Source: a virus (lineage: Duplodnaviria > Heunggongvirae > Uroviricota > Caudoviricetes). Taken from it: DNA of 4,579 nt. A program made the position numbers. The DNA lies in the IMG/VR virus record IMGVR_UViG_2778261705_000020; one strand, 5' to 3'. Position 1 is the stretch's first letter. Each line of letters begins with the position of its first letter. Of the stretch, positions 1-3,000 are shown in pieces.

Positions 1-3000
1 TTTCAGGTGTACTGAAAGACGGCACAGGAAAACCGGTAGAGAACTGCACCATTCAACTGAAAGCCAGACGTAACAGCGCCACGGTGGTGGTGAACACGGT
101 GGCCTCTGAAAATCCGGATGAAGCCGGGCGTTACAGCATGGACGTTGAGTACGGTCAGTACAGCGTTATTCTGTTGGTGGAAGGGTTCCCGCCGTCACAT
201 GCCGGGACCATCACCGTGTATGAAGATTCTCAACCCGGTACGCTGAATGATTTTCTTGGTGCCATGACTGAGGATGATGTCCGTCCGGAGGCACTGCGCC
301 GTTTTGAGCTGATGGTGGAAGAGGTGGCGCGTAACGCGTCCGCGGTGGCACAGAACACGGCAGCCGCGAAGAAGTCAGCCAGCGATGCCAGCACATCAGC
401 CCGTGAGGCGGCAACCCATGCGACTGATGCTGCGGACTCAGCACGCGCAGCCAGCACGTCAGCCGGACAGGCCGCGTCGTCGGCTCAGTCAGCGTCTTCC
501 AGCGCAGGAACGGCATCAACAAAGGCTACTGAAGCATCAAAAAGTGCTGCCGCTGCAGAGTCCTCAAAAAGCGCGGCGGCTACCAGTGCCGGTGCGGCGA
601 AAACGTCAGAAACGAATGCGGCAGTGTCACAACAATCAGCCGCCACTTCTGCATCCACCGCGACCACGAAAGCGTCAGAAGCTGCCTCCTCAGCCAGGGA
701 TGCGTCGGCTTCAAAAGAGGCGGCAAAATCATCAGAAACGAGCGCAGCCTCGAGCGCCAGTAGTGCAGCCTCCTCGGCAACGGCGGCAGGCAATTCCGCG
801 AAGGCGGCCAAAACGTCTGAGACAAACGCTAAGTCCTCTGAAACGGCAGCAGAACAGAGTGCCTCCGCAGCAGCAGGCTCAAAAACAGCGGCTGCATTAT
901 CTGCCAGTGCCGCGTCAACAAGTGCCGGGCAGGCCTCAGCCAGTGCCACCGCCGCCGGAAAATCGGCAGAAAGTGCCGCATCGTCTGCTTCAACAGCCAC
1001 AACGAAGGCTGGCGAAGCCACTGAACAGGCCAGCGCAGCAGCGAGTTCTGCTTCCGCAGCGAAGACATCCGAAACGAACGCGAAAGCGTCGGAAACCAGC
1101 GCAGAATCCTCAAAAACGGCTGCCGCATCGTCAGCCAGTTCGGCGGCGTCATCGGCATCATCTGCGTCTGCTTCAAAAGATGAGGCGACCAGACAAGCGT
1201 CAGCAGCGAAGAGCAGCGCCACGACGGCATCCACGAAGGCGACAGAGGCAGCTGGTAGTGCGACGGCAGCAGCTCAGAGCAAAAGTACGGCGGAATCTGC
1301 AGCAACGCGCGCTGAGACAGCGGCAAAACGGGCAGAGGATATTGCATCCGCCGTGGCGCTTGAGGATGCGAGCACGACGAAAAAGGGGATAGTACAGCTC
1401 AGCAGTGCGACTAACAGCACTTCCGAGTCACTGGCGGCAACGCCAAAAGCCGTTAAGGCCGCGTATGAGCTGGCTAACGGGAAATACACCGCACAGGATG
1501 CAACGACAGCACAGAAAGGGATAGTTCAGCTTAGCAACGCGACCAACAGCACATCTGAAATGCTGGCGGCAACGCCAAAGTCGGTAAAGGCAGCCTATGA
1601 CCTTGCTAACGGGAAATATACTGCTCAGGACGCTACGACAGCACAAAAAGGAATTGTCCAGCTCAGTAGTGCAACCAACAGCGCATCTGAAACGCTTGCC
1701 GCGACACCGAAAGCAGTGAAAGCAGCTAATGATAATGCGAATGGTCGGGTACCTTCTGCCCGTAAGGTGAATGGTAAGGCGCTTTCATCGGATATAACAC
1801 TGACGCCGAAAGATATTGGTACGCTTAACTCAACAACAATGTCATTCAGCGGTGGTGCTGGTTGGTTCAAATTAGCAACGGTAACCATGCCACAGGCGAG
1901 TTCTGTTGTTTCAATTACGTTGATTGGTGGCGCGGGATTTAACGTGGGGTCACCTCAACAGGCAGGTATATCTGAACTTGTTTTGCGTGCAGGTAATGGT
2001 AATCCGAAGGGGATTACTGGTGCTTTATGGCAGCGCACATCGACAGGGTTTACAAATTTTGCCTGGGTCAATACATCTGGTGATACTTACGATATTTACG
2101 TTGCAATCGGAAATTATGCGACTGGTGTAAATATTCAATGGGATTATACCAGTAATGCCAGCGTGACGATTCATACGTCACCAGCATATTCTGCTAATAA
2201 GCCGGAAGGGTTAACGGACGGTACAGTTTATTCACTCTATACGCCATCAGAGCAGTTTTATCCGCCTGGCGCACCAATCCCGTGGCCATCAGATACCGTT
2301 CCGTCTGGCTATGCCCTGATGCAGGGGCAGACTTTTGACAAATCTGCATACCCGAAACTTGCAGCCGCTTATCCGTCAGGCGTGATCCCTGATATGCGTG
2401 GCTGGACGATTAAGGGCAAACCTGCCAGTGGTCGGGCCGTATTGTCTCAGGAACAGGACGGCATTAAATCGCACACCCACAGCGCCAGCGCATCCAGTAC
2501 GGATTTGGGGACGAAAACCACATCGTCGTTTGATTACGGCACTAAATCCACGAATAACACCGGGGCGCACACGCACAGTGTGAGCGGTACAGCCGCAAGT
2601 GCCGGAAACCATACTCATAGTGTCACAGGCGCATCAGCAGTCAGCCAGTGGTCACAAAATGGGTCAGTACATAAGGTAGTGTCTGCGGCCAGTGTGAATA
2701 CAAGTGCTGCAGGAGCGCACACTCATAGTGTCAGCGGCACAGCTGCATCTGCAGGTGCTCACGCACATACTGTCGGTATTGGTGCTCATACGCACTCTGT
2801 TGCGATTGGCTCACATGGACACACCATCACCGTTAACGCTGCGGGTAACGCGGAAAACACTGTCAAAAACATCGCATTTAACTACATTGTGAGGCTTGCA
2901 TAATGGCATTCAGAATGAGTGAACAACCACGGACCATAAAAATTTATAATCTGCTGACCGGAACTAATGAATTTATTGGTGAAGGTGACGCATATATTCC

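Follow-up and report, generated by a model that had tools for sequence, protein, structure and literature searches.

We analysed a 4,579-nucleotide (nt) stretch of viral DNA (IMG/VR record IMGVR_UViG_2778261705_000020; Caudoviricetes), called the window below, which carries stf, the gene for the side tail fibre in a lambda-like prophage of Escherichia coli O157:H7. The encoded fibre, Stf, is very probably a mosaic: a lambda-type frame was kept, and the shaft segment corresponding to lambda residues 394–529 was swapped for an unrelated cassette of 173 amino acids (aa), a linker followed by a predicted beta-sandwich. Modular exchange of this cassette is supported by the comparisons below, because the middle of the protein is unrelated to that of lambda, its edges are sharply defined, the P1-like Punavirus JL22 has the same block, and alternative blocks occupy the same junctions in other phages. 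A preliminary description of this DNA had proposed such an exchange and expected it to alter receptor specificity and host range. The exchange was borne out; the change of specificity was not, since receptor binding in relatives of this fibre lies at the C-terminal tip.

The cassette, its edges and its counterparts

As a reference we used the full-length lambda Stf (774 aa, record KT232076), which was aligned pairwise to the O157 protein; residues of the latter are numbered as (window position - 3)/3 + 6. Both ends of the fibre closely resemble those of lambda (Table 1). In contrast, residues 585–760 gave no BLASTP match to lambda Stf even at E <= 10, nor any match to phage SPF_0923 or to T4 gp37 and gp34. 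These results confirmed the lambda-like ends around a different middle that had been described earlier. The region named at that time, 1740–2267, does encode the quoted peptide (residues 585–760), and the discontinuity itself was placed, nearly to the base, at about 1739–2253 (residues 585–757). The accompanying residue numbers, about 555–730, needed correction, having been counted from an internal GTG at 84, whereas the true start lies 13 nt to the left of the window edge. Colinear identity over the full length of lambda Stf was not found: the middle is unrelated, 105 aa are inserted in the stalk, and two extra repeats are present.

At the DNA level, homology to lambda stops at position 1458, or at 1720 if followed via a repeat, and returns at 2261. 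The DNA of the lambda-like phage SPF_0923 shares 95% identity up to 1607; allowing for an offset of one repeat, identity of 81% extends to 1738, and 98% identity is found over 2254–3466. Between 1738 and 2254 SPF_0923 holds an unrelated 265-aa block. At both cassette edges, similarity to SPF_0923 thus drops from 95–98% to none within a few bases. The right junction is the motif (F)YPxGAPIPWP at the start of the collar. The long open reading frame (ORF) is unbroken across both junctions, and the overlapping tfa gene is intact. The G+C content of the cassette is 0.44–0.49, below that of its flanks (0.54–0.60).

The same cassette was found in the Stf of JL22, with 92.4% DNA identity over 1814–2546, a stretch that extends into the collar; over the knob, as we call the predicted sandwich, the two proteins are 95% identical. 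The collar, tip and Tfa of JL22 are similar to those of O157, whereas the N-terminal part of its Stf is unrelated and serves attachment to the P1 baseplate. JL22 has this lambda/T4-type stf-tfa pair (locus 3024–6044) as well as cin and the customary invertible S/U fibre genes. The cassette was further present in 1,413 of the 5,426 complete E. coli genomes, mostly at an identity of at least 99%, and it matched 20 E. coli plasmid records, 13 of them at 90–95% identity; most of the listed plasmids are 90–105 kb long. Three alleles of the cassette (P0003–P0005), which are 74–78% identical, keep linker and knob together. The linker (residues 585–610) had no match in lambda, SPF_0923, JL22 or T4.

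We then compared the slot that the cassette fills, taking from nine fibres the segment between the last AATPKAVK and GAPIPWP, to which the following lengths refer. Four mutually unrelated cassettes and one composite were found at these shared junctions. The segment is 149 aa long in lambda and 184 aa in the O157 type; SPF_0923, PhiR29_1 and mEp460 share a type of 265 aa, and 2H10, mEp332 and Chlobot one of 418 aa. The composite is that of JL22 (565 aa), in which a lambda-type module, an SPF_0923-type module (PF21446, Gp34_trimer-like) and an O157-type module follow one another in series. Abrupt loss and return of similarity, a block shared with unrelated phages, and alternative blocks at the same junctions, the three marks of a mosaic fibre, were all found. 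DNA identity of the shared block is 92–94% for JL22 and matching E. coli plasmid records.

Outside the cassette, the resemblance to Ur-lambda Stf (UniProt P03764) and Tfa extends to gene position, anchor, Ala/Ser-rich stalk, PF03406 repeat, collar, HxH needle and Tfa. Residues 1–94 of the anchor matched the N-terminal structure of Ur-lambda Stf (9e7m, E 8e-52). In Pfam, the protein matched PF08400, PF03406 three times, Collar and Phage_fiber. The stalk is 83% identical to lambda over residues 135–303 and 82% over its end (409–460), and between them residues 304–408 (window 897–1211) form 105 Ala/Ser-rich aa without a lambda counterpart at that position. The proximal coiled coil should hence be about one third longer than that of lambda, judging from the sequence. 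The same 105-aa addition occurs in SPF_0923, with 97% identity. The PF03406 repeats are 69–79% identical to lambda and number three, compared with one in lambda; at the DNA level they appear as a 132-bp tandem repeat at 1381–1726 (TRF, period 132, 2.6 copies, 78% matches). Copy number varies among the fibres: three in O157, two in SPF_0923 and mEp460, and one in lambda, 2H10 and PhiR29_1. This variation suggests unequal crossing-over beside the cassette junction.

The earlier view that anchor, stalk and C-terminus are lambda-like therefore needed qualification at two places. Anchor and stalk do reach 83–90% identity, apart from the additional stalk residues and repeats. Toward the C-terminus, the collar and the last 66 residues (78% identity) are close to lambda, whereas a tip segment at residues 836–905 has diverged, with 56% identity to lambda and 70% to T4 gp37.

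Predicted fold of the cassette and probable site of receptor binding

Searches with residues 590–757 returned no Pfam family, no NCBIfam family and no relative in the PDB by sequence, and in PHROGs only unnamed or generic "tail fiber" families. The NCBIfam hit to dentilisin PrtP (E 0.017, 13.7 bits against a cutoff of 300) was dismissed as noise. Homologues of the sandwich domain with 35–58% identity always lie within tail fibre proteins, namely T2-type gp37 and the fibres of Felix O1-like phages, ST64B and SSU5, which differ from the O157 fibre in flanking modules and in morphotype. In T2 gp37 the domain covers residues 822–924 of 1341 and is 48% identical to the cassette. T4 gp37 was expected to hold it too, as T2 gp37 does; by BLASTP it was absent. 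When 1.84 billion representatives were searched exhaustively without a profile, only 174 clusters matched. Their proteins range from 54 to 2,682 aa, the shortest being fragments, and the domain lies internally at varied positions; in three proteins two stretches were matched.

For structure prediction we used a 29-sequence alignment, after removal of the frameshifted entries P0028 and P0108. Its homologues are mostly contig-cut fragments of up to 308 aa, and they served the alignment and not the study of architectures. The AlphaFold2 monomer model was all-beta, with ten strands and no helix, and had a mean pLDDT of 76; most of the core reached about 85–94, and the 25-residue linker was poorly defined. 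The core is predicted to be a self-contained, jelly-roll-like beta-sandwich domain. The structure prediction proposed in the preliminary description thus yielded a sandwich-like model, with homologues that are shaft modules of other fibres.

Structural matches of the model comprised WceF of Pantoea stewartii (6TGF), tailspikes, among them those of Acinetobacter phages (6C72, 8OQ0, 5W5P, 6E1R), gp37 proteins, and exopolysaccharide (EPS) depolymerases. In WceF a 137-residue, eight-stranded jelly-roll follows a short triple beta-helix, and the three chains part to form one sandwich each (PMC7949094). The matched part of WceF is probably this C-terminal jelly-roll, because its other small domains hold helices or are too short. 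These trimeric proteins, with one sandwich per chain (PMC7949094), offer a likeness for the arrangement that we propose for O157. In contrast to the O157 domain, their sandwiches stand beside a beta-helix enzyme body and not in a fibre shaft, and sequence identity is 10–17%.

Downstream of the cassette, residues 744–971 matched the T4 gp37 tip structure 2XGF (phmmer, E 2.5e-88). The order typical of that tip, a collar followed by an HxH needle and a small tip, is present in O157 with PF07484 and seven HxH motifs. Seven motifs are also found in T4 gp37 residues 785–1026, in the same order, compared with eight in lambda. The needle of T4 gp37 holds seven iron sites. Residues 746–971 of O157 Stf are 66.5% identical to gp37 801–1026 and share its collar, and in both systems the chaperone gene (tfa or gp38) lies directly downstream; the two fibres differ in that no similarity is found upstream of the collar and the sandwich cassette is absent from T4. 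Between the third and fourth HxH motifs, window 2547–2753 has no DNA similarity to lambda.

The map of Ur-lambda Stf assigns residues 102–393 to a proximal coiled coil, 394–422 to a hinge and 423–525 to a distal coiled-coil domain described as six intertwined chains (PMC12617516). The receptor-binding domain follows after residue 525 and docks on OmpC much like T4 gp37, and the trimeric fibre speeds up adsorption through OmpC binding (PMC12617516). For both T4 gp37 and lambda Stf, the part that binds the receptor is the C-terminal tip (PMC12617516, PMC9659904), and a tip family of about 215 aa common to T4 and lambda has already been described (PMC9659904). On this map, what was replaced in the lambda shaft is its hinge together with the distal coiled coil, and not the receptor-binding domain; in O157 two extra PF03406 repeats and the knob stand in its place. 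The best-supported reading is that the cassette acts as a shaft module, which would alter the length and geometry of the fibre. As a determinant of specificity, the divergent tip segment (window 2547–2753) appears likelier than the cassette, and of all parts of the fibre it is the best candidate for governing receptor choice.

Alternatively, the cassette could itself be a receptor-binding, lectin-like domain whose exchange alters or widens the host range, the knob binding a glycan and the tip a porin or lipopolysaccharide (LPS). Its fold class adjoins the glycan-degrading beta-helices of tailspikes and EPS depolymerases, and saccharide binding by a lambda-like side tail fibre has been shown for Gifsy-1 Stf (PMC12312913). 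Moreover, cassettes alternate while the tip stays constant, as in SPF_0923, whose tip segment is 100% identical to that of O157 despite a different cassette, and this would fit selection on the cassette. However, the cassette lies upstream of collar, needle and tip, more than 80 residues before the gp37-like tip, and the homologous domain of T2-type gp37 is over 400 residues away from the C-terminus. Binding in the characterised relatives maps elsewhere, as described above; the strongest structural matches, WceF and the sandwich domains of tailspikes, have no demonstrated binding role, and no ligand-site residues could be identified in the cassette. We therefore regard a receptor-binding cassette as unlikely. 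A supplementary role of the knob as an accessory glycan-binding element is possible, with the same low probability. Still somewhat less credence is given to the wider proposal that the knob represents a Pfam-less family of accessory glycan-binding domains in the shafts of many phage morphotypes, conferring a second receptor specificity independent of the tip. If that wider proposal were true, the four alternative cassettes that lambda-like phages carry in the slot would amount to a second host-range switch.

Origin of the mosaic

Returning to the shaft module, we propose that cassettes were exchanged by homologous recombination between co-resident phages and prophages, inside the conserved stretches on either side of the slot. 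The left bracket would be the repeated LAATPKAVK motif in the 132-bp PF03406 repeat, and the right one the YPxGAPIPWP motif. For phage lambda, recombination with defective prophages across stf-tfa is established and is of the relaxed homologous kind (PMC3945230). In the assembled fibre, each of the three chains would depart from the fibre axis and form its own sandwich, so that the distal shaft would bear a trimeric knob. Such a knob could alter how long and how stiff the fibre is as well as the geometry of its hinge, and it may contribute weak contacts to glycans. The primary recognition of the receptor would still fall to the gp37-like tip at the C-terminus, which Tfa would help to fold.

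Several points weigh against this interpretation. The lower G+C content of the cassette may merely reflect amino-acid composition, because the flanks are Ala-rich. The structural model is that of a monomer, with a mean pLDDT of 76, and was built on a shallow alignment of 29 sequences; the trimeric knob is extrapolated from it. The choice of the WceF jelly-roll was made by length and all-beta content, the aligned WceF residues not being reported. In addition, direction and timing of the exchange are not readable from the data, and lambda itself may be the recombinant. That the O157 prophage makes the fibre is presumed.

Tail fibre genes evolve fast, and tip segment 836–905 does show graded divergence; the middle of Stf could accordingly have changed in place under diversifying selection, with no exchange at all. 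We consider this highly improbable. No residual similarity remains at E <= 10, and the slot lengths differ (149 aa in lambda and 184 aa in O157). The lambda segment consists of hinge and coiled coil (PMC12617516), whereas an all-beta sandwich is predicted for the O157 domain. Four cassette types at shared junctions, edges sharp to within a few bases in SPF_0923, and a block 92% identical in DNA in JL22, whose Stf is unrelated in its N-terminal part, form a pattern that divergence in place cannot yield.

That the junctions arose as a chimera during assembly or sequencing, or that the gene is a decayed and functionless prophage remnant, has an almost negligible probability: many near-identical lambdoid prophages of O157:H7 do confuse assemblies, and the adjoining cargo gene is cut by an insertion sequence (IS) in the window, but 4,198 bases are 100% identical in many independently finished genomes, hundreds of them in all, which excludes an artefact of assembly, the cassette is widespread at high identity among complete genomes, the ORF and tfa are intact, and the tail genes of strain 10671 bear no pseudogene flags.

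This case is clear, and it is ordinary module shuffling. The modularity of tail fibres has been known since the late 1980s and early 1990s, when exchange of fibre segments among lambda, T4, P1, P2 and Mu was reported (Montag 1989; Haggard-Ljungquist 1992; Sandmeier 1992 and 1994; as cited in PMC3945230), and the O157 cassette leaves the understanding of tail fibre evolution unchanged. Modestly new are the explicit bounds of the slot, the inventory of its cassettes, and the predicted fold of a domain without a family. The slot is a clean, naturally swappable site in lambda-type side tail fibres, and its junctions coincide with the fusion points used by engineers for redirecting lambda particles to new targets: chimeras of lambda STF fused at lambda residues 393 and 528 are functional (bioRxiv 10.1101/2025.02.28.640725). 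The motif names MDETNR and GAGENS, as insertion points in lambda Stf, were absent from the text of the Nature 2024 Eligo paper. The natural catalogue of cassettes, together with a compact predicted sandwich, could guide fibre engineering, and this small domain family is worth a structure.

Gene context of the fibre

The window contains stf, tfa, a manganese-catalase remnant and the end of an IS629/IS1203 element (Table 1). By megablast, bases 1–4198 are 100% identical, with one mismatch (G128T), to chromosomal DNA of numerous E. coli O157:H7 strains; parts of the window occur in a median of six copies per E. coli genome. The G/T difference to strain 10671 at position 128 lies inside the anchor domain.

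Table 1. Features of the Stf fibre and of its surroundings, with positions in the window.
Feature	Residues	Position	Strand	Basis
stf, side tail fibre gene		1..2903	+	one long ORF entering from the left edge; annotated coding sequence (CDS) in the identical O157 prophage
Tail-attachment (anchor) domain	1–134	1..389	+	PF08400, E 3e-72; 90% identical to lambda
Ala/Ser-rich proximal stalk		390..1367	+	alignment; coiled coil in lambda
Three tandem 44-aa PF03406 tail-fibre repeats		1368..1739	+	PF03406, E 1e-51, three stretches; last repeat ends at the left junction of the cassette
Cassette linker	585–610	1740..1817	+	poorly modelled in the monomer (low pLDDT)
Cassette core, predicted all-beta sandwich knob	611–757	1818..2258	+	
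Collar	758–835	2259..2492	+	PF07484, E 7e-12; 91% identical to lambda, 83% to T4 gp37
gp37-type needle and tip, seven HxH motifs		2493..2900	+	2XGF match; divergent tip segment at residues 836–905
tfa, tail fibre assembly chaperone		2903..3484	+	193-aa ORF; 94% identical to lambda Tfa, 30% to T4 gp38; annotation
Manganese-catalase cargo gene remnant		3604-4198	-	cut by the IS end; intact in strain 10671
IS629/IS1203 (IS3 family), left end		from 4199	+	begins TGAACCGCCCCGG; orfA at 4253-4579

The full stf CDS measures 2916 nt and encodes 971 aa (WP_000268883-type); the window begins at nt 14, so that the first five codons lie outside it. It is an annotated and very common prophage gene of O157:H7, and two protein accessions, WP_000268883 and WP_000279120, cover the copies of the fibre in O157 strains. 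In strain 10671 the 971-aa product is annotated as "prophage tail fiber N-terminal domain-containing protein", and the annotation gives a whole lambda-type set of tail genes upstream, followed by gpJ, lom, stf and tfa. The PF08400 anchor, the order J-lom-stf-tfa and the adjoining downstream tfa identify a lambda-type Stf/Tfa system. The stop codon of stf overlaps the start of tfa in TAATG (2901–2905), which suggests translational coupling of fibre and chaperone.

No invertase gene was found downstream of tfa in the region of strain 10671, and an arrangement of the kind switched by P1 Cin or Mu Gin was thus not present there. The junction between IS element and catalase gene, searched for in one piece, was not found in any complete genome. 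Strain ERL04-3476 also has an IS1203 in its manganese-catalase gene, at another insertion site. Downstream of tfa, strain 10671 carries manganese catalase, two ferritin-like proteins and a general stress protein (locus 15604–17817). This cargo block is followed by remnants resembling the end of DLP12 (a frameshifted methyltransferase and a partial tfa) and then by ompT. At the equivalent position SPF_0923 carries sitCD, and 2H10 and mEp460 carry an invertase.

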